The notes beneath the pieces are model-generated. The model saw nothing but the letters and a program-made list of their open reading frames with translations. It made no database searches and was not told where the DNA came from. From positions 434,001-498,000 of the forward strand of contig AP026134.1 of NCBI GenBank assembly GCA_030295235.1: 64,000 nucleotides of DNA, read 5' to 3'. Shown in pieces: positions 41,073 through 64,000 of the stretch; position 1 is the first letter of the stretch; every line of letters starts with the position of its first letter. A program made the translations under genes and the position numbers. This DNA comes from Fistulifera solaris. Taxonomy: Eukaryota.

Positions 41073-43426
41073 TTACACAAGCAACGCTGTTTTCTCTGAT
41101 ATACAAGCATCCGTATTAGTAACAGATGAGGCTCCGTCGTCAAGAATCGAGTCGTCTTTTTCGTCGTCGCTGACGCTCGCATCGTCCCCGCAAATCCGAA
41201 ATGGATTCAGTTCTTCACTGAGCTCTTTCAGTCCTTCTCGAACATATGAGAGGGTTTGCTTAGCTGCCCTTCCATCAAAGGAGGCAATTCGATCCTCAAT
41301 ACCAAGGATAGCTTCGTCGTCATCCGATTGTCCAGATATCGCTTTCTGTGCGTACGAAGCAAGCTCTGCTTCCATTGCATCTTCGTCTTTTGGTAGCCAT
41401 TTTATCAGAAAAAGCAACTGTATGGCGCTGATCATCCAGAAAAGAATGATCTAACAGAAAGGGTAAGGTGTTTTCATTCCCTTGTGACAGCCTTGGTAAA
41501 AACACAAGCTTGCTCGTACCGTTATGTTAAAAGCCGACTTTCGAGAGCAGCCGTGGAAAACGCTCAAGAGAGTTATACAGCTTGGCCCGATCCCCCGACC
41601 TAACGTTATAAGAAGATTTGCAGCTGTCAATGTGGCTCCTCTTGTCTCAGGTGGATTCACGTTGAGTAAACAAGGCCTCACACTGACAGCCGGTAATGAA
41701 GCAATCAAGCCGGAGCTAAAAGATAACAGCAGCCCTTGGGCGCTGCGTGCCCTGGTGAACTGACTATTGATAAACCCATAAAGAGGAATGATTCCAGCTG
41801 CCGTTGAAACGGCCATAAAAAGTGGAAGATACGACCGCTTGACAGAATGGATATTTTGACCGATGTACCCGCCCAAGATCCCTCCAACTCCACTACCCGC
41901 CGCGAAGACGAGGATCAAAAACGTTGCGTCCGGGACAGAAAATCCTCGTTCTTGCGATAAAAAATCATTCAAGAAAACGAAAATGATTCCCCACGGAAGA
42001 TTTGAAAAGAAGCCTTGCCACAGAAGAATCCAGTTTGAATTGTTGTGTCGAATAGAATGGACGAATCCAGACCAAGTCAATTTCCGATCGTACCGCTTGC
42101 CAGTCTTTTGAAACATGTCCTGCAGTATGGCCTCCTTCCCTCCACGAATGGGTTCTGACACCAAGCATCCACATAAAAGCGCACAAGCCAGCGAAAAGCA
42201 CGAAGATACCCAAAAACGTGTCGCCAACTATCTCCAAGGTTGCTTCCTGCATAGACCTGTCCAGCAAGAATACCTATGCCCATACAAGCCGTAAGTCCAG
42301 AACTAGCCGCGTTTCTCTCATGTGCTGAAAATAAATCGCCCAAGAAACTGAAAGCTACAGGAACACTGCCAGCCATGAATCCACCGGTGACGAGGCGAGC
42401 CGCTATAAACTGTCGATAAGACACTGCTGCCGCAGCACCCGCGGTAGCCATTCCGGTTCCAGCAACCGTGGCAACAAATAGGCGTTGCCTGTGTTTTGTG
42501 AGATCAACTGCAACACCAATGGCCGCGGCAATCGGGAATGAAAACACTCCAGTCGCCAGCGCGCAATAACTTCCAAGGTACAGATCGCGGTCGGCGGCAT
42601 CCGTCCAGCCAAAAGTAGAAGCTATCTCCGTCAAATTTGGAGCCATAATGTTGCTACTTGACCATACGGCACAAAATGCAAGACCGAGGAGAAGGGACTG
42701 GGCATGCCGCGTTTCGTGTGGCTTTCGTTTTTTTGAAACTCCTGCTTTCAATGAGTCCATGCCACCATTCTGATACGACATAGTTGATACTGGAGTTTCG
42801 AAAGAGTCTCTGGGCTCGGCCTCCTTCCTTTCGTATGAATGGGAACCTGCTCTTCTGCTCTTCTCTTCGGTTGAAAGATCTCGAGCTTGTTTCGAAAAAA
42901 TTTGAAGCCACTTCTTTCGGTTGCCACATCTTTCGTGGTCATCCTGTGATCTCGGCCAAGGCAAAGTACCCGAAACAGGAGAACCAGGGGGAGTTAGAGC
43001 AATCTGTACATCACTGGCATCTATCTGGTATAAGCAGCTTTCGGACCGTAGAATATCATAGGACTCCCTTTGTCGCCGCCCTTTCCTCTGTCGATCTCGT
43101 TCTAATACCGACATACCCGGAGAAAAGTCCGGCGATTGCGATTCCCAAAGCCCGGCACTTCGTCGCTGATCATGTAATGCTTGTTGAATTTCTTGCCCAA
43201 AAATGGATCGTCGTCTTTCCGGCGGTGGCACACTCAAGGGCGGAGAAGGAAAAGGCTCTGCATTGCGATTCGAAATAATGAGAGTGGCAGCATCCGACGT
43301 GGTGTGCGCTAGTGAATTCAGAGTATATGCTATAGATGAGTCTTCAGAATAGGAGCGAGCGTTTGCAGAAGCAGGCGTTTGCAGCGATTCTGGCGCCTTG
43401 CGAATGTTCAAAGATGTCGAAGTCAT
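41073..43426 (-). CDS. Major facilitator superfamily transporter (Spinster-like) with a long disordered N-terminus; frameshift near 42230, intron 41451-41519
   Basis: About 12 hydrophobic segments; NIMAPNLTEIA, ARLVTGG, FSFLGDLFSAHER, PWGIIFVFLNDFL and LLNVNPPETRG. Confidence 0.85.
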
Positions 43427-44224
43427 TGTAGTAAAGATAAGAATCGATATCAATACCGCGGTCACTTGACTTAGTGATCCTTCCTCAACAGGGGTCACTC
43501 GCAAATTCTCTTTCCATTCGATCTATTGTGTTTCACTCACTGAAATCAGTTATTACCTTAAAGACCTTAAGCTTGACTACTAGCAAGAATTTGTTTCGTT
43601 TTACCTTTTCATTAGACGAGTGCGTTGATCGTTGATCGTCCCGCGTTCATTCCGAACGTTTGCACGAAGGATCGAGATCGTGATGTGAATGCATTCGATA
43701 TCCCGTAATCCTATTGATCTAATGAACTTGCCCTCAACATTGTATTCTGTGTCTTAGCGGTCGAGAGGACGATCTTTGAAATTGACCCAAGTACCGGTAC
43801 AAGGTATATTACTACATAGGATGTCCGCAAGGCGTGATGAAAATGGACTCTAGGCTAAAAAGTAGGAATTCGAAAAGATGGCTGGTTCATCATTACAAAA
43901 ACTGTGACCGGCTCCCACTAAACACTATCAGAGCCCCTAAGCTAGTAATTTCTTCAGGACAAGAAATGGCTCCTTTTTCCTCTCTGGGCGTGAAATGAGG
44001 CATGAGCATGAGGCATGAGGCATTTGCCATCGAGTAAGTCTACGACCTGCATTGTAGTGAAGGGGCGGGGGAGTTGAGTGAAATAAAGGAAAATACGTCG
44101 CTTTGCAGGGGATAGAGCATTATCCAGACGTTCAGCAAGCGCCACGAAATCAATCGCTCATTCCACAATCAACGCCGTCTTCGAGTTTCAGGTCAATATC
44201 AGAGCAGTACAAAGCCCAGAGAGC

Positions 44225-49999: not shown

Positions 50000-51526
50000 T
50001 CATTTCATGTGAACCATCATCTCAAAAGGGTTGCTGAGCAATTCCTGCACTCGGACGTGAAAGCGAGCAAGCTGGGCCCCATCCACATATCGGTGATCAG
50101 CGGTCCATGTTATCGGTAAGACACTCGATGCAATTACTTCATCGTTCTTTCCAAATCGCGGGAGCTTTTGCAAGCGTCCGATAGCCCCCATGGCTAGTTG
50201 TGGCGGGACCAGTACGGGCTGCAAGGACAAACCGGCTCCCAGAGCACCAATATTAGACAATGTAAACGTAGGACGAGTCGAGTCAAGCGCAATCTCATCA
50301 CGATTTTCTTTGAGCGAATCCAATTTTTCCTGAATCTCAGAAATGGACATCATGGCACAATCTCCTATCACAGGAACGACAAGTCCTCTCGCCGTATCCA
50401 TCGCTACTCCAATCTGATGTTGCGATTGCATACGAATGGAACTCTCCGTATTCTTGGCAGCGTTCAAAACTGGAAAGTCCTTCAACGCTATACTGCACGC
50501 CTTGACAATGAAAGCCAACAAACTAAGGTTCTTCGACAATGCTGAGTTGATTTCTTTCCGGATCGCTAGCAGATGTGTAACATCGATTTCGTCTCCCAGG
50601 CACATGTGAGGAATTTCTAGTGATTGCGTCATGGCTTTTGCCATTGCACGTGTATAGCCCCGTAATTCCACGATCTCTCCATCCATATTGTGCGACGCAA
50701 CTTCGGTTTCCAAAGCAATGCTTTTCTTGTCCATGAGCGATTGATTGCTGTCGACAAATGCCAGAACATCCGCTTTCAGCAGTCTTCCTTGCGGCCCCGT
50801 CGCCGGAACAACGGATGGATCGATCGCTTTTTCTTTGCAAAGTTTTCGAACAGCTGGACTTGTCTGAATCTTGACATTCGACCCCTGAATAACAGAAGAG
50901 TTTGGCGATACTACCGGTGCAGCGCCCTCAAGAGATTCGCTAATTATCGTTGTTTCTTCGTCAATCATCATCGTAGTATGCGGTGACTTTGCACTTGATT
51001 CCATTGTGTCATTAGCATCAACAAGGCTATCGGTATAAGCACAAGTCTCAAGAAAAACAAGAGGCTTTCCCACTTGAATCATATCGCCAACTTTTCCCGA
51101 AAGCTCCAATATTGTTCCGTCAAAGCGGCTAGTTATATCCACCGTTGCTTTATCACTTTGAACCTGACAAATCAAATCAAACTGCTCGACAGTATCACCG
51201 ACTTGCACATTCCATTTGATCAACTCAACTTCGTGAATGCCTTCTCCAATGTCGGCGAGGAGAAAGGGAATGACAGCTTTGTCATTTTGAAGAGCAGGAG
51301 CAGTCGAGAGATGGCTCTTGGTCAATTGATGCTGATAGATCTGCATAGAGGAGGATCGAAAGGATCCCGCTATGCGACAAGTCACTGCCGTGTATGGCAC
51401 AGTAGAATAGCCTGGGATGACAGAACTGACGTGACACAAAGACGAACGTTGCACGAGCACGGAATCTATTTGCTGTCGAGAAAATCTGGCCGCATATGAT
51501 CGCAGCTTCAACGACGAGCCAATCAT
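50000..51526 (-). CDS. DBT: Branched-chain alpha-ketoacid dehydrogenase E2 (dihydrolipoamide acyltransferase), mitochondrial
   Basis: Lipoyl domain FLLADIGEGIHEVE..EQFDLICQVQSDKATVDITSRFDG; E3-binding SPAVRKL..TGPQGRLLKADV; catalytic FTLSNIG and DHRYVDG; Arg/Ser-rich presequence. Confidence 0.93.
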   Translation of the reverse strand: MIGSSLKLRSYAARFSRQQIDSVLVQRSSLCHVSSVIPGYSTVPYTAVTCRIAGSFRSSSMQIYQHQLTKSHLSTAPALQNDKAVIPFLLADIGEGIHEVELIKWNVQVGDTVEQFDLICQVQSDKATVDITSRFDGTILELSGKVGDMIQVGKPLVFLETCAYTDSLVDANDTMESSAKSPHTTMMIDEETTIISESLEGAAPVVSPNSSVIQGSNVKIQTSPAVRKLCKEKAIDPSVVPATGPQGRLLKADVLAFVDSNQSLMDKKSIALETEVASHNMDGEIVELRGYTRAMAKAMTQSLEIPHMCLGDEIDVTHLLAIRKEINSALSKNLSLLAFIVKACSIALKDFPVLNAAKNTESSIRMQSQHQIGVAMDTARGLVVPVIGDCAMMSISEIQEKLDSLKENRDEIALDSTRPTFTLSNIGALGAGLSLQPVLVPPQLAMGAIGRLQKLPRFGKNDEVIASSVLPITWTADHRYVDGAQLARFHVRVQELLSNPFEMMVHMK

Positions 51527-51567
51527 TCGTTGCGTAATTTGTGTTTCCAAGTTATTCAAGCGATAAG

Positions 51568-51633
51568 ATTGGAGACTTATTATCGTTGTTCGCTAAATGA
51601 TCATTGGAGACTTATTATCGTTGTTCGCTAAAT
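51568..51633. repeat. 31-bp direct duplication (attggagacttattatcgttgttcgctaaat, x2) upstream of DBT
   Basis: Copies start at 51568 and 51603. Confidence 0.9.
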
Positions 51634-53898: not shown

Positions 53899-54409
53899 TT
53901 AATGGGCCGCAGCACGGGCACGTTGCTGTGAGTTGACATTCTTGATATCTTCACGTTTGGCCAGTGCTCGTTTGTGCGAACCCAATCGACGCTTGGCAAA
54001 CTTGTAAATTCGCTTATCGGCCGAAGAACCGCCGGTTTTGATCATATCCAAAATACGACGTTCATAGGGAGCCAAACCGACGACTTCACGGGCAATTTGA
54101 CGGCACATGGTGACGCGCTTTCCGGCTTTCTGTGAAAAATTTAAAAAAAATGAAAAGCAAGAGTGAGTCGACAGAGACAAAACGGTGGCTTTTCTTTTCG
54201 GATGACCGAAGAGAAGTGAAGGGAAGCAAGGCTAGAGACGACGAATGCTATTTCGAAAAAGAACTTTCACTTCGCTTCATGCACTCGTTCGGCATTTTCT
54301 ACGGTGATAGAAGACTTACACCCTTGGAATGGCTGGGCTTGGCTTTCAGTTCACGTTGTTGCGTGATGTGTCCCGAGTTGGCACCTTTGGCGTAACCGTT
54401 TCGTGTCAT
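53899..54409 (-). CDS. RPL36: 60S ribosomal protein L36 (eL36); intron 54130-54319
   Basis: MTRNGYAKGANSGHITQ..KPSHSKG spliced (GTAAGT...CAG) to KAGKRVTMCRQIAREVVGLAPYERR..FAKRRLGSHKRA. Confidence 0.96.
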
Positions 54410-54890: not shown

Positions 54891-55232
54891 ATGCCGGACA
54901 ATCGCTGGACGCAAAACACTCGCCACTCGTACAATACGGCTTCGGCCAAACTGCGGGCCATTCGCATGCCCGGTGGGGCCTTGAAGAGTCAACGTGTGAC
55001 CAAAACTACCAAAGGACCCCGTTGCTCCGATTGCAAGAAAGTTCTTCCCGGAATCAAGCACATGAAATCGTCCGAATACGCGCGAACCTCGAAACGAGAG
55101 CGTACCGTCAGTCGTTGTTACGGTGGATCGACGTGCCATGCCTGTGTGCGCCAGCGAATTATGCGGGCGTTCTTGTTGGAAGAACAAAAGGCAGTCAAGA
55201 AGGTATTGGCGGAACGAGCGGCCAAGAAGTAA
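54891..55232 (+). CDS. RPL34: 60S ribosomal protein L34 (eL34); probable 5'-UTR intron ~54649-54848
   Basis: RHSYNTAS..MPGG, CSDCKKVLPGI and VSRCYGGSTCHACVRQRIMRAFLLEEQK. Confidence 0.96.
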   Translation: MPDNRWTQNTRHSYNTASAKLRAIRMPGGALKSQRVTKTTKGPRCSDCKKVLPGIKHMKSSEYARTSKRERTVSRCYGGSTCHACVRQRIMRAFLLEEQKAVKKVLAERAAKK

Positions 55233-56065: not shown

Positions 56066-58660
56066 ATGAAACTTCGAATCAGTTTGCTTCTTGTCGTGGC
56101 GGTTCGAGTGCAATCCTTCCACTCTATTGTCACCCAACAACCTTTTCCCTTTCAACTCTACAGCAGCTCTGCCGGAATCCTTTCCGAAACCGTCTCCGTA
56201 GAAACAATAGGAGATTGTTTAGGATCGGGAAGGTGAGTTGGAAGGAGTACGCTTGGTAGTTCCGTGTGTCTCTTTCTCATTACTGCTCTTTTTCTCAGTT
56301 ACGGCACAGTTCACCTCCTTCAAACAGTACAAGCGGATCAGCGCAAAACATGGTTGGTAGGAAAGCGTGCATGGACATTGGAAGAATTACGAGAACAAAG
56401 AAACGAACAACAAAGTAAAAAATTAGAGGAACTAGCCGAACGATGTCGCTATTATTTGGACGTGGAAGCGTATTGTCTTTCCAAATTTCAGAATCAAAAC
56501 AATATAGTCCCATTTCGGGGCCGCGCCAAAGATGAGCAGGGGCGTGAATGGATGTTAATGGATATGATGAAAGCGGATGAAGCGGATGGAATGCCACATG
56601 CCAGCAGTGTTGCCCCTAGTTTACAAGACATTATCGAGCAAGATCGCACGGATCCACACAACAATCATCATTTGTTTTACTTATCGGCCGCGTTGGGAGT
56701 TCATGGAGATTTATCTCAAACATTGGATGTCGTCATCTCCAACCTTTTGCATGCTTTGAAAGCAACACACGAATTGGGCATCGTCCATCGGGATGTCAAA
56801 CCAGGTAATCTTCTCGTGGTTCCTTCGGGCCGGCTGGTGTTATTGGATTTCGGGAGTGCCGCGGATTTGTCACCCAAGGGCTGGTTCGCGAAGCGAATGG
56901 GATGGGAACAAGACCGCGTGGCAGTTTCTCCGATTTACGCGGCTCCGGAAGTATTCATTAATCCGACAAATGTACAAGAGTCGCTGACGTTCGATTGTTT
57001 CAGTGCGGGGCTGTTAATTTGTCAACTGCTTTTTCAATACCTGGATGAACGAACCGAATCCGGATTTCATCAGCAACGTGAATCGGTGGATTGCGATTTG
57101 GACGAATGGCTCCGTACCGCGTTAGCGAGTAAAGTGAGTCCAGCCGGCATGGACGATGCCATGGACGTTTTGCAGAAACGACCCGGACTCTGGCGCTTAT
57201 TGAAAAGTCTGCTGCAAAAGGATCCTAGAAATCGTATCTCTAGTGCCAAGGCTTTGGAATTGTGGTATCTGATCCAACAAAATGCGTCAACGGAAATTCA
57301 AAAACGCGTCGCTGATGCCCGGCTGGACGATGGGGCTTACTTGAAGGACTGCTTGGAACTATACAGTTCGTGTCCAGTGACCCCCACGGTATGGCCTCTA
57401 CACTTTGTCGCAACGTTCGATCGAAGAAAGCCGCTAGGTTTATATCTCTCGGAAGTAGACTTGGACGAGGAAACGAAAGCTGAGCTTAGTGCTGAAGATC
57501 GCAAGAAATGGGACGCTGCTACAAGTGATATGCCTTCCGGAGAAGTATTTGTCCAGGGACTTGTCCCTGATAGTCAAGCGGATATCTTGGGTATTTTTCA
57601 GGTAGGAGATCGACTCGAAGGTGTAGGTGAACTACCTGTTTCAGGTGCAGGCTTCGAAAAGGTCTTGGAACTATTGAAAGATCAACCCAAGCAGAGCAAG
57701 TTTGTTACGCTTCACTTTGCAAGAAAATCGGCAATTCAGGTAACAGATATGAATGAGAATGGAATTATGGATGGACCTGTAAAGGTCGTAGATCAAGGAG
57801 CCTGGACAACCAAAGGTCGTCGTCCTTCTCAAGAGGATGCGTATATAATGCATGAAGTTCTTGGTTCAAAAGAAAGTTCCTTGTTATTAGCAGGCGTGGC
57901 AGATGGGCATTTAGGTAGAGCAGCATCTAGCTTTGTCAAGTCGGAGCTTCCGCTTTCTGTTTCTGAAATATTATGGAAGCAATCAAGAAGAAATACGAGC
58001 TTGGGCCAATTGCTATTTGACGCATGGGATCAAGTATGCGAAAAATACCGGAGCGGATGCATATCCGGAGAAGAATGCGCCGCAGATTACAATCCTCGGG
58101 AAGGGTTTTTGATGGCCAACACCGGGTCCGTTGACGCAATCGCAGGGACCACCACATGTCTTGTGGCTGTCGACTCACAAACGAGTCAAATGTCATTTTT
58201 GAATTGCGGCGATTCTAGGGGCCTTGTCGTTGATAAAGAAGGCAAACTGGTCTACATCACTAATGATCACACACCCGAGTACGATCAGCAACGGCTCACC
58301 GAGGGTCGCAGTCAAGGTAAAGATTACGAGCCACCATTGTGTCGAGCAGGTCGATGGTCTGTTGCAGTGGGAGACTTTTGCTATGCTTTAGCACGGTCCT
58401 TGGAAGGTCCTTTTGCGACTTCCAAGGGTATCGTCTCGGAGCCCGATATTGATCAGTTTCACGCACCTCCCGGTGCCACCGTGGTTGTGGCCACGGATGG
58501 ATTGTGGGAAGTGATGGATTCGGAACAAGTGGCTCACATAATAACGAAAATGAGGAGGCATTCGGAAAGTGCTGCCGAGGTTGCGAAAGTGTTGTGCGCA
58601 CTCGCTGTTCAAAACGGTTCAAGTGACAACGTAAGCGCCGTTGTTGTGTACATGGAATAA
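56066..58660 (+). CDS. Predicted plastid-targeted STN7/STN8-like Ser/Thr kinase - PDZ-like - PP2C phosphatase fusion; intron 56233-56298
   Basis: Exon 1 MKLRISLLLVVAVRVQS-F.. splices (GTGAGT...CTCAG) to complete GSGSYGTV. Kinase motifs HRDVKPGN, DFGSAADL and YAAPE; PDZ-like PLGLYL..FQVGDRL; PP2C motifs RRPSQEDA, DGHLG, GTT, NCGDSR, DH, ATDGLWE and DN. All three domains are in one uninterrupted frame. Confidence 0.9.
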
Positions 58661-59148
58661 ATACTGATGTTGGCAACTCATTACTGTGACCCGAGACGCA
58701 AAAGTTATGTTTACAACAGCGATCTTTCGGGAGGGTCAACCTGGGGTGATGAGAAGCATCCAGACCAGAATGAAAACATGTTTTTTTGTTTTTGTGAGTG
58801 TCGACAGAACCGACGCCCCGATGAGCCCTACAGATAGTTGGATGCAAGCCAAGCTTCATTGCTGGTACGGTACCAGTACCGTGTCTCAAGCTGCATCTTC
58901 GTGTGACTCAATCGAGACCCAGTCCCGGAAAATAATGCCCACATCACAGCGTTTATTAATTGACACCTACAATTCTTTACAACAACACTTCGTTAATTCG
59001 TTAATAATTGTCTCCCAGAAACGTTTGTCATTCTTATGCTTATTCGACGTACAAAAGGAACTGATTGCGGTTTCATTTCGTGGGGACTCGAACAGTGAAT
59101 TCCGAAGCGCGTAGCTGCACTCAGAGGAAAAAGAAAAAAGGAATCATC

Positions 59149-61398
59149 ATGGAATATCAATCGCATTTGAGTTTTTCATCGTTTCAAGATGAAGTGCATT
59201 CTCGGAAAACCAAGCATCACCGGTATTCGGTGGATTTATCTGCCGATCGTCGACGAGCATCTCTCTTTGGAGAGTCAACTGCAGTACATGACGCAGAAGA
59301 TCTCTCTCCCCTTTCACCGTCAGAGCACTATCCTCATGACGACACTCAACATTGGCTGCGAGATGCGTTGCACCAAATTCCCGCAATTCTTTTAATCGGC
59401 TTATTTCATCTGATGGTAGGGATTCCTTTTGGGGTTTCTTATTTTCCCATTGGTTGGGCCACGGATGACGACTCCTCGAGTGATAACACAACAGCCTTTC
59501 CGGTCAAAGGTAAAGAAGCCTTAGGGATTCGTATGTTTTTGTTCTCCACAATGATCGGGCAAATTGTCTTCACGTATGCATCCGGCTTTGCAAGTCCGAT
59601 TGGCTTACAAATGATCGAGAACGTACCGTTTTGTCACGAACTGGCTACCATCGTCATTCGTCATCAAGGATACGGGGTAGAAGCCCTGTCGACGCTTTTG
59701 TTCCTCTTTGGTTTGGCATCACTGGCAGTGGGTTTCGTATTTGGAGCGTTGGGCTACTTTGGACTGGGTCGGATAGTCTATTATTTCCCCACACATGTTC
59801 TGGTCGGCTGTATTGGTGGCATTGGAGTCTATGTTGCGAAGACAGCAGTGGAGGTGGCATTGAACGCACCGTTTGGATATGAGACCATACGGCGCAATTT
59901 CCATTTGTTGAGAGTGGTTCTTTACTTCGAAGTGAGTCTACGGATTCTTCAAAAACTAACCTGGGACCATGTGGCAAAGAAACCGCGATATGCATTACTA
60001 TCACCCATCTTCTTCTGCTGCATCACGCCAGTTTTCTACGCTGCCTTGTTTTTATTGCAGGTCCCCATTCAAGGCGCCCGGGACCGAGGCTATTTCTTTC
60101 CGGCGTTGAACGGCGACTGCAGTGACTGTTCCATTGTCAACGAACATCTTTGGGACATGTGGCGTGTTCTCGATATCACGACGTTATCCTGGCCAGCTGT
60201 GTGGGAATCCCTGCCCACATTACTGGCGCTGATTCTTTTTCATTAATTCATGTGCCCATCAATATACCCGCCTTTGCAATCTCCACCAACACAGAAGTCG
60301 ACATGAACAAAGAATTGCTAGCGCATGGCTACGCAAATCTTTTTGCAGGATTGTCAGGTGGCTTGCAAAGTTACATGGCTTACACCCAGTCCGTATTGTA
60401 TCACAAATCAGGCGGTTACGGAAGAATGTCAGGATACGGGGTTGCTGCGTTGACTGCTGTTCTATTTGTCGTCGGACCGACCCTGGCTTCTTATACTCCG
60501 CGTTGCATGGCTGGTGCTCTTTTGCTTCATGTTGGATTGGATCTCTTTCTTGAGGGCGTTTATGATTCCTATGGAAAGTTTGATATGATTGAATATGCGG
60601 GTATATGGCTGATTACGCTAGTAATGACAGTTCGACGTGCAATTAGCAATATTCGTCTCCGGATCAGAGGACGGATTTCAATGTGAGTACAACCTGACGG
60701 AGGAATTGATGTACGTTGGCAAACTTAGCCCCCATGTCGAAGGGATTGTCGACGAGACAACCGAGCTGAGACGGTCTTCACTTAATGAACGGCTCACTTT
60801 CAAAGGCAGTCACGTCTGTAGTTCGCTTGACAAGGCCTTGATTTACGCCGAAGATGCCCTTGTACATTCGGTTGACCCGAGCTTGCTCTTCAACAACATT
60901 CGTATGAGCCACCCTCCCATTCGGCGAGACTCTTCCTTAGATGAAGAAAAAGATGTTGCGCTGAGATATTTGCAAAACTTATGCCCATCCGGAGATACAA
61001 GAACCGTGCAGGTTCTCTTTTCAAAATTCAAACGAGAGACTTATGTGAAGGGACAGTATTTATGGAGGCAGGACTCTCCGGGAAATTGCGCAAAGCTTCT
61101 TGTTTGGGGTGAATTGATAGCCTACATTGAGAACGAAGCCAATACGTTCGAGATTGTTGAAACTGGCAATACAGTCGGTGAACTTTGCCTAGTGGACGAC
61201 GTTCCACGAATGAGTTCAGTTTGCTGCTTGTCAGAGAACGCTGTTCTTTATAGCATCAGCCGCGATGATTTCACGTATCTTGTCGAGACGCATCCACACG
61301 CAGCACGACTCGTTGATTTACTTTGCATTCGCTATCTTTCCGCGCGAGTGCAGCTCGCGAGTAATCGTATATTCGAGACACGCTGTTTACCTGTTTGA
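59149..61398 (+). CDS. SulP/SLC26-family transporter with a C-terminal cyclic-nucleotide-binding domain (Vsb1-like); frameshifts near 60240 and 60630, STAS region apparently missing
   Basis: Motifs QMIENVPF, LGRIVYYFPTHVLVGCIGGIG, IHVPINIPAF, DMNKELLAHGYAN, and a cNMP-type GNTVGEL..PRMSSV. Confidence 0.85.
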
Positions 61399-61572: not shown

Positions 61573-62955
61573 TTATACTTCATATTCTTGATCGTGAGAT
61601 TTCTTTTCGTCGGCGTCTTTCAGCTGTGTTAAACTTCTTTGAATAGCCCACTCGGCAGCATCTACAGCCCCAGAATCAGTCGCCCCCTCTGCCTTTTCTG
61701 CTTCAGCACGCGCCCTATCTTCTCCAGAAAGTTTTTCCCTTTCTTTTGGTACATCGGAATCTATTGATCTGTTCAGAGCTGTGAAGTCTTCGCTGTTAGG
61801 ACTCCCGAGAGATTGGTCACCAATCATAGCTGCAGCCCGACCAACTGCGTCCCAATCTCCGCGCTCGATTGCCAACTCAAGAGCTGATCGCTGCTCTTTC
61901 AAAGAATCTGGCGAAACAAATATGGATATATCTGAATCACCAGGAGTGCTTGGCATGGACTGAGGACTTGCTATCGTTTGTGCTGCAGGCTTAACTCCGG
62001 GAACTACACCACGCTGAACAGTTTGCTTTGCTTTCACTTTTGCTGCTTTCTGGCTAGCAGCTCGGGCCTTCTGAGCGGCTGCTCGCTCTTGCATTGGTCT
62101 TAAAGTTTCTATTAACTCTTCTTCACGTCCCTTGAATTGATTCATCATTTCGTCTACATTGTCAATCTCTTCCGGAACGACCCGGCGAACTAGCGCTTCC
62201 ACTTCAGCTCGAATTTCCGCCCGCTTGGCTATCTTGCTGGGACTATCAGATAAAGTCGACATGGAACGTGTTGCCCCAGTGTCGGTACCTGTTCCGGTCA
62301 TCGAATCAGCACTCGACTCAACTGAAGCACCGACTGTGCCCTCAACGTTTCGCGATGCCTCTGTTTGGTACTTGGCCGCTGCTAGAACACCTTCCTAATA
62401 ATCGGCATCCAGCCACTGCTCAAACTCAGCCTCGAAAGCGACTTCAATACTCGGAAGACGACGGTAGACAATACCAGACCAATCGCCAGCGTATATCATC
62501 TTATCCAGCGCTTCCCTATTTTTTTCGGAAAGGTTTTCAATCATTATTGAAGCCCGACCAACTGCGCCCCAATCTCCGAGTTCGATTGCCAAATCCAACC
62601 ATGTTCTCCATGTAGTTGGATTGTGCGCCAGTGCCATTCGTAGTGTGCTCGTGAGTTCCTCCACCACATCCGGCGGAAGAGGGCCTGGAAGACGTTCAGT
62701 ACTTGTGGCTAGATAACGATACACTGCTTCCGCAGCTAATGTAGCAAGTGATTTTGGTGAAGACGTACCGTCTCCATGATCGATAAAGTTGTTTGTAACG
62801 GGGAAGAGAGTTGCAAACCAGTTGTTTGGATCCTTTGAAGCATGATGCTTGTATGAGAAGCACTTTATTGTCATAACACGCCGTTTCAGCATCTTACATC
62901 TTATTTCCTGAACTACATCGGCATCCTCTCCATTTTTAACTTGCTGGTGAAACAA
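61573..62955 (-). pseudogene. Chimeric/partial duplicate of the GDW-repeat gene at the right edge, with an in-frame stop at 62395-62397
   Basis: ORFs 62395-62955 and 61573-62301 are in the same frame, separated by one TAG (DY*EGVLAAAK). The segment ~61573-61885 is nearly identical to 63514-64000 apart from indels. Confidence 0.6.
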
Positions 62956-63513: not shown

Positions 63514-64000
63514 TTATACTTCATCTTCTTGATCGGGAGAATGGCGCGCTGAAGGTTTCTTCTTGTCGGCCTCTTTCAGCTGTGTCAAACTTCTTTGAAT
63601 AGCCCACTCGGCAGCATCTACAGCCCCAGAATCAGTCGTCCCTTCTGCTTTTTTTCTGTTCAGCGATTTGCATCCACAGTTCAGCTTGTTGTAGTGCTTC
63701 TTCCTCTTCGTCCGTTATTTTACTTGTTGCCTCTTTCTTCGCGGGAGACCCCGAGAACACGAGGGCTTTAGACACAACACCAGACCAATCGCCAACATTT
63801 ATCATCTCATCCAGCTCTTCAGCACGCGCCCTATCTTCTCCAGAAAGTTTTTCCCTTTCTTTTGGTACATCGGAATCTATTGATCTGTTCAGAGCTGTGA
63901 AGTCTTCGCTGTTAGGACTCCCGAGAGATTGGTCACCAATCATAGCTGCAGCCCGACCAACTGCGTCCCAATCTCCGCGCTCGATTGCCAACTCAAGAGC
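63514..64000 (-). CDS. C-terminus of a large GDW-repeat protein (AIERGDWDAVG / GDWSGVV / AAEWAIQRSL) entering from the right edge
   Basis: ORF 63632-63991 plus a frameshifted tail ending at TAA 63514; the tail matches the copy ending at 61573. Confidence 0.65.

Follow-up and report, generated by a model that had tools for sequence, protein, structure and literature searches.

Chloroplast kinases of the Stt7/STN7 and Stl1/STN8 type are opposed in plants by PP2C phosphatases, TAP38/PPH1 and PBCP, which are separate proteins (PMC12661317 and PMC6056723, in the available excerpts). The gene described here shares with TAP38/PPH1 and PBCP the PP2C family, the metal-binding aspartates and the concept of a phosphatase set against an STN-type kinase, whereas here the phosphatase is fused to the kinase. 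Diatoms are described as having no STT7/STN7 homologues (available text of PMC10089185), and phosphorylation as an overlooked layer of control in these algae (available text of PMC7378808). Kinase and phosphatase on one chain have precedents: bacterial proteins join PP2C to a Ser/Thr kinase (excerpt of PMC1262709), and Mycobacterium Rv1364c carries both activities and acts on its own STAS domain (excerpt of PMC9138534). In the bacterial forms, unlike in the diatom fusion, the PP2C comes first and the kinase is a generic one; a bacterial-type fusion of this kind in our data set (P0305) has a kinase that falls in the outgroup of our tree. We take the Arabidopsis proteins At2g40860 and At2g20050 to be joined kinases and PP2Cs as well. 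Kinase-PP2C fusions as such are already known, so the idea is not categorically new, but STN-related kinases, PDZ domains and secondary-plastid presequences are all absent from the fusions compared. The source cited for the absence of STN7 from diatoms is reportedly Grouneva et al. 2013.

The gene lies on contig AP026134.1 of Fistulifera solaris, within a stretch of 64,000 nucleotides (the window, to which all positions refer). It consists of two plus-strand exons, 56066-56232 and 56299-58660, and encodes a product of 842 aa. Exon 1 codes for the presequence and for the beginning of the kinase as far as the glycine-rich loop, with a hydrophobic core, the sequence VQS|F and the first half of that loop in the frame of the ATG at 56066; exon 2 ends with the stop codon TAA. 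A 66-nt GT-AG intron on the plus strand (56233-56298) interrupts the glycine-rich loop, and its retention brings an in-frame stop. When donors from 56225 to 56244 and acceptors from 56260 to 56329 were scanned, this was the sole pair that yielded an open protein. The open frame at 56237-58660 (807 codons) spans all three domains but lacks the N-terminus of the kinase. The preliminary description, which had presequence, kinase, PDZ-like domain and PP2C all in one frame, was therefore right that one polypeptide carries all the parts, each of which we located at the position it gave, but not that the frame is continuous, as the intron lies in between.

Protein P0002 (FisN_22Lh148, source name Fistulifera solaris) has the same length of 842 aa and the same N-terminus as the spliced product, and is 100% identical to it over the 786 residues of exon 2. 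A contig from the public run X2, taken as RNA by guess only, skips exactly the 66 intron bases; it shows 14 differences and so may stem from the homeolog. A second contig from this presumed RNA run bridges the junction between PDZ and PP2C (57651-57869) with zero differences. The run X1, which may be DNA, carries the 66-nt intron unspliced. We regard it as almost certain that kinase, PDZ and PP2C are made as a single fused protein. The homeolog copy of the fusion gene lies on contig C13 of the same assembly, and dN/dS between the two copies is 0.10 for the kinase, 0.09 for the PDZ and linkers and 0.08 for the first 261 codons of the PP2C. Opposite window position ~58546 this copy (L007, G000:C13) shows a gap of one base close to the end of its PP2C, and the frame stops early; its database protein (P0399, FisN_22Hh148) is complete, and the gap is probably an assembly error.

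The neighbouring genes in the window gave no functional lead. Upstream lie two divergent ribosomal protein genes, L36e (53899-54231, minus strand) and L34e (54891-55232, plus strand), and on the minus strand a 2-oxoacid dehydrogenase E2 subunit (50000-51592) and an MFS transporter (42077-43522). Downstream, a sulfate permease with a cyclic-nucleotide-binding domain (59065-61398, plus strand) is spread over three frames with a stop at 60244-60246, which reflects either introns or a frameshift. Direct repeats at 61597-61884 and 63553-64000, 2116 bases apart and 100% identical over 184 nt, reach the end of the window; they lie in a repetitive minus-strand gene that has no Pfam match, and may be internal repeats of that gene or a tandem duplication.

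Three domains make up the mature part of the protein, as previously described. The STN-related Ser/Thr kinase domain (aa ~45-380; 56198-57271, plus strand, interrupted by the intron; Pfam Pkinase E 9e-22) contains GxGxYG, K78, E112, HRD219-221, K223, N226, DFG239-241, SPIY/APE, D288 and R368. The PP2C domain (aa ~550-842; 57779-58657, plus strand; Pfam PP2C E 2.9e-21, 76.7 bits against a cut-off of 20.3) contains R564, E568-D569, D591-G-H, NCGDS 691-695, D712-H, D789-G and D832-N. Between them lies a PDZ domain in which an acidic insertion follows the second strand (aa ~421-532; 57392-57727, plus strand). The best PDB sequence matches of this middle region are PDZ domains (best E 7.8e-6), and the region had no match in a Pfam search of this protein; Pfam PDZ is above the cut-off in seven relatives (P0181, P0208, P0210, P0256, P0258, P0260 and P0279). 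In the ESM Atlas the kinase led to generic kinase clusters, and the PDZ leads were under 0.9.

From the 89 fusions found among the homologues (see below), 54 full-length alignment rows were selected. In these, K78, E112, HRD, K223, N226, D239, D288 and R368 of the kinase, and R564, E568, D569, D591, D694, D789 and D832 of the PP2C, are kept in 53 or 54 of the 54 rows, and the metal-binding residues E568, D569, D591, D694, D789 and D832 in all 54. Because these catalytic residues are kept, both domains appear catalytically intact, and both are probably active enzymes. A pseudokinase or pseudophosphatase reading was rejected.

The kinase had been likened to STN7/STN8 on the basis of its C-lobe pattern. 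That pattern was borne out, as the block F..L..(Y/W)DL..W is common to this kinase and the STN kinases, which also share small residues after DxG. The structural comparison points in the same direction: the AlphaFold model of the kinase (pLDDT 86) has the Micromonas Stt7 homologue (PDB 4ix3) as its first-ranked Foldseek match, with a fold-comparison Z of 26.5 (rmsd 2.6, 275 residues aligned) against 21.1 for the next chain. By sequence, 4ix3 is absent from the best 60 PDB kinases, both for this kinase and for its diatom profile; it comes first for a less diverged relative (P0240) and third for the profile of a paralogue described below. P0002 reaches 104 bits against an STN profile; none of 96 generic kinases exceeds 53 bits, and a true member scores 335. 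A profile-profile alignment of fusion kinase and STN covers 294 columns at 23% identity. When a plant STN8-like query was searched against this genome, the gene and its homeolog were the top two of 62 matches (E 3.5e-11 and 5.8e-10; next 7.3e-8), and the 98 matches of a green-algal STN query included the fusion P0208 as well as named STN8 and Stt7 proteins.

Phylogenetic analysis places the kinase beside, rather than within, the STN7/STN8 clade. In trees of an 89-domain set and a 40-row set, which have a small outgroup and no named land-plant STN7, the fusions and the paralogue form one clade (support 96/94 in the 40-row tree) that is sister to the STN clade (85/94), and both together are separated from six outgroup kinases at 100/99. 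Forcing the fusion family into the membrane-anchored STN7/STN8 crown was rejected (AU p 0.0015, for a group chosen after the tree was seen and with long branches present). The features of that crown are missing as well. The best 19-residue hydropathy before the kinase is 0.71, compared with 1.06-2.14 in 13 members of the crown; the PG-hydrophobic motif typical of these is missing, and so is the CxxxxC found in 4/5 of the Stt7-like controls scored ('Stt7-like' being our own assignment); the absence of an N-terminal transmembrane segment and lumenal cysteine pair, remarked on in the preliminary description, therefore holds. Before Y-x-(A/P)-PE in the P+1 loop, SP is found in 25/25 fusions where STN kinases have DP, and the gap between APE and helix F is 9-13 residues rather than the 27-35 of STN rows, with a 32-residue STN insert missing. 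Because of this sister position, the rejected crown nesting and the missing transmembrane helix, CxxxxC, DP and insert, the kinase is STN-related, a sister family, and is not a member of STN7/STN8; we accordingly rejected the reading of it as an STN7/STN8 orthologue.

Several other kinases in these trees deserve mention. A stand-alone kinase, P0513 (source id tig00001086_g6861, a style which we take to point to Cyanophora), branches next to the fusion family (86/67, without firm support) and is a possible relative and a lead for the family's origin. Two soluble STN kinases of the Stt7d type, P0486 and P0469, bear an N-terminal PDZ-like domain (E 0.0015, under the cut-off) or an FHA domain, so that docking modules recur on soluble STN-type kinases. 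P0470, P0471 and P0479 lie on the STN8/Stl1 side of the tree, two of them with signal-peptide-like N-termini, and could be genuine STN kinases from algae that have complex plastids. A degenerate copy of the fusion-family kinase is embedded in low-complexity sequence in P0211, P0220 and P0223 (1292-2100 aa); P0211 lacks the DFG motif and is nested in the diatom fusion clade, and these copies are possibly a pseudokinase offshoot.

TAP38 does not stand out among the sequence matches of the phosphatase. The best PDB matches of the PP2C domain are PPM1B, PPM1A and other generic PP2Cs; PPM1B has an E of 2e-12, against 7.5e-7 for entry 4yzg, which we take to be TAP38 and which is 46th in the best 60 of 72 PDB rows. 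PBCP is absent among these best 60 of 72. Within these PDB matches, TAP38 comes no nearer to the domain than the generic PP2Cs do. In a PP2C tree that leaves out P0208 and has no inferred root, 16 fused domains stand on one side of a branch and 11 other PP2Cs of this genome on the other (94/94), a grouping consistent with one old fusion event. The fused PP2C also has an insertion with three cysteines, C636, C643 and C649 (58037-58141, plus strand), and a further conserved cysteine, C737, at ~58340, while C414 sits at the junction of kinase and PDZ. Across the 54 rows, C414 is kept in 53, C636 in 49, C643 in 54, C649 in 53 and C737 in 52, and the PP2C cysteine pattern is found in 100 of the 103 complete fusions (near-duplicates included) among 513 fetched proteins. 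The insertion is present in diatoms and Parmales and absent from P0208, P0210 and P0256.

The N-terminus resembles a plastid-targeting presequence, as had been proposed from the VQS-F motif. A predicted signal peptide (aa 1-17; 56066-56116, plus strand) with cleavage at VQS|F is followed by a transit-peptide-like stretch (aa 18-44; 56117-56197, plus strand) with 8 Ser/Thr among 27 residues, 1 acidic residue and no Lys or Arg. Targeting was scored by our own heuristic, in place of SignalP/ASAFind, using the rule that F (or W) at +1 after the cleavage site marks stromal import (available text of PMC4329603). By this measure, 52 of the 68 N-termini that are complete have a small-x-small|F/W motif after the hydrophobic core (the other 27 of 95 sequences were excluded as N-terminally short), compared with a mean of 6.6 and a maximum of 14 in shuffled sequences and 0/91 in unrelated kinases. 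The same source, in the text available, states that plastid import requires a net positive charge of the transit peptide, and the case for this single protein is weaker because its stretch contains neither Lys nor Arg. No transmembrane segment was found between presequence and kinase. The protein is thus predicted, with good though not full confidence, to be imported into the plastid.

The kinase-PDZ-PP2C architecture was found in diatoms, Parmales, Tribonema and Chrysoparadoxa. Among 120 homologues listed, 89 have kinase and PP2C, 3 the PP2C side only and 28 the kinase side only, and the domain order is identical in all fusions, which include MMETSP transcripts labelled 'complete'. Both pennate and centric diatoms carry the fusion (named sources include Amphora, Seminavis, Cylindrotheca, Nitzschia and Skeletonema), as do Triparma and Parmales sp. 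among the Parmales, Chrysoparadoxa in a profile search and Tribonema in a further search. Beyond diatoms and Parmales, a complete PP2C is found only in P0208 among the matches listed; the models of Chrysoparadoxa, Tribonema, P0256 and P0156 end within the PP2C. No named brown alga, eustigmatophyte or haptophyte is among these matches, and a metagenome scan gave, among the matches listed, generic kinases at E 1e-12 or weaker and no fusion-family loci. A paralogue with the same kinase clade, PDZ and conserved junction cysteine but without the PP2C occurs in Ditylum, Thalassiosira and proteins P0236, P0254, P0280-P0291 and P0240; a genome search found no copy of it in this genome. Our literature search, which left most subscription papers outside its coverage, found no description of the architecture. 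The main text of a study of the ancestral ochrophyte plastid proteome (PMC5462543) mentions none of STN7, PDZ or protein phosphatase, as far as its available part goes, and its supplements may list the fusion family.

That 28 of the 120 homologues listed end after kinase or PDZ, and that one MMETSP transcript yields two separate ORFs (P0119 and P0411), might suggest that kinase and phosphatase are separate genes which gene prediction has joined by mistake. However, the 28 short forms all depart from the alignment at two shared positions, 25 of them at the first, and continue with V-S/R/C/G, so the pattern fits reading into GT introns, which we infer to be present there. The cluster of P0119 also contains a full 1032-aa fusion (P0413), and the 807-codon open frame and the X2 contig across the PDZ-PP2C junction both argue against separate genes. 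We therefore rejected the split-gene reading, whose chance of being correct is practically negligible.

We propose that the product is a nuclear-encoded, soluble enzyme of the plastid stroma with two opposing active sites, which its PDZ domain would dock to a protein or complex of the plastid that probably belongs to the photosynthetic apparatus, so that kinase and phosphatase together could set the phosphorylation state of one shared target. Since the lumenal sensor of Stt7/STN7 is missing, the balance would be set from the stroma. The cysteines C414, C636, C643, C649 and C737 would be the likeliest sensor of redox state or metal, and changes in Mg2+ and pH that are driven by light and act on the PP2C could be a second route of control. 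The insertion cannot be the ancestral control because it is missing from the more distant fusions, and the apparently lower frequency of enzyme redox control in diatoms (available text of PMC7378808) counts against a cysteine sensor. The paralogue, whose kinase-PDZ unit works without a fused phosphatase, also speaks against the proposal. We give this reading, a soluble, PDZ-docked plastid writer and eraser acting on a shared target under stromal control, a probability of about 0.45; the shared-target step, taken alone, falls likewise a little short of an even chance. Architecture, conservation and ancestry are shown here, whereas docking, the shared target and the writer/eraser switch are what the arrangement would suggest.

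Other arrangements of the same parts would give a different biology. The PP2C may act chiefly in cis, on the kinase or linker of its own chain, holding the kinase off until a signal arrives, so that phosphorylation would be the sole outward activity; plant PP2Cs hold SnRK2 kinases off in an analogous manner. The fixed domain order would provide the phosphatase with a tethered substrate, and the kinase is of the RD type, its P+1 loop opening with an invariant Ser at the position where Asp is found in STN kinases. However, the activation segment has no further conserved Ser/Thr, and the kinase-PDZ paralogue lacks a PP2C; we consider such self-resetting unlikely. The existence of the kinase-PDZ unit alone in some diatoms and P0240, together with bacterial kinase-PP2C fusions of unknown relation (excerpt of PMC1262709), would suit two enzymes on one scaffold with separate substrates, merely co-localised and co-expressed by the fusion. 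That the fusion has persisted, with its domain order unchanged, from diatoms to the Tribonema lineage suggests coupling instead, and leaves separate substrates only a small chance of being right.

It is also conceivable that the protein is a direct stand-in for STN7/STN8 and TAP38/PBCP, with antenna or PSII core proteins as substrates and plastoquinone control, since the ranking of the gene and its homeolog with the STN8-like query makes them the closest STN relatives found in this genome. Yet the transmembrane helix is missing, as is the lumenal cysteine pair that is tied to activation at cytochrome b6f (available text of PMC12661317), and both the rejected nesting in the membrane-anchored crown and the rank of 4yzg among the PP2C matches speak against it, which makes a stand-in decidedly unlikely. 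Finally, the protein might work outside the stroma, in the periplastid compartment or ER, in a role unrelated to photosynthesis; the missing basic residues of the transit-peptide-like stretch and the heuristic nature of our targeting score would allow for this. A non-stromal role is nevertheless very improbable, given the F or W at +1 in most of the N-termini, a stromal-import mark in the available text of PMC4329603, and the plastid location of the nearest kinase family, which is also the location predicted for the fusion.

Based on our findings, we suggest that a group said to lack both STN7 and state transitions has a conserved STN-related kinase that is predicted to enter the plastid and carries a phosphatase of its own. 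This extends the STN superfamily to a soluble branch in the red lineage, with P0513 as a possible relative. We further speculate, though the odds are against it, that a soluble sister of the STN kinases was retained in ochrophyte plastids and fused to its own phosphatase, and that this single switch under stromal control may be the main regulator of light-dependent phosphorylation of the photosynthetic apparatus in diatoms. The gene offers a test case for asking who writes and who erases plastid phosphorylation in these algae.
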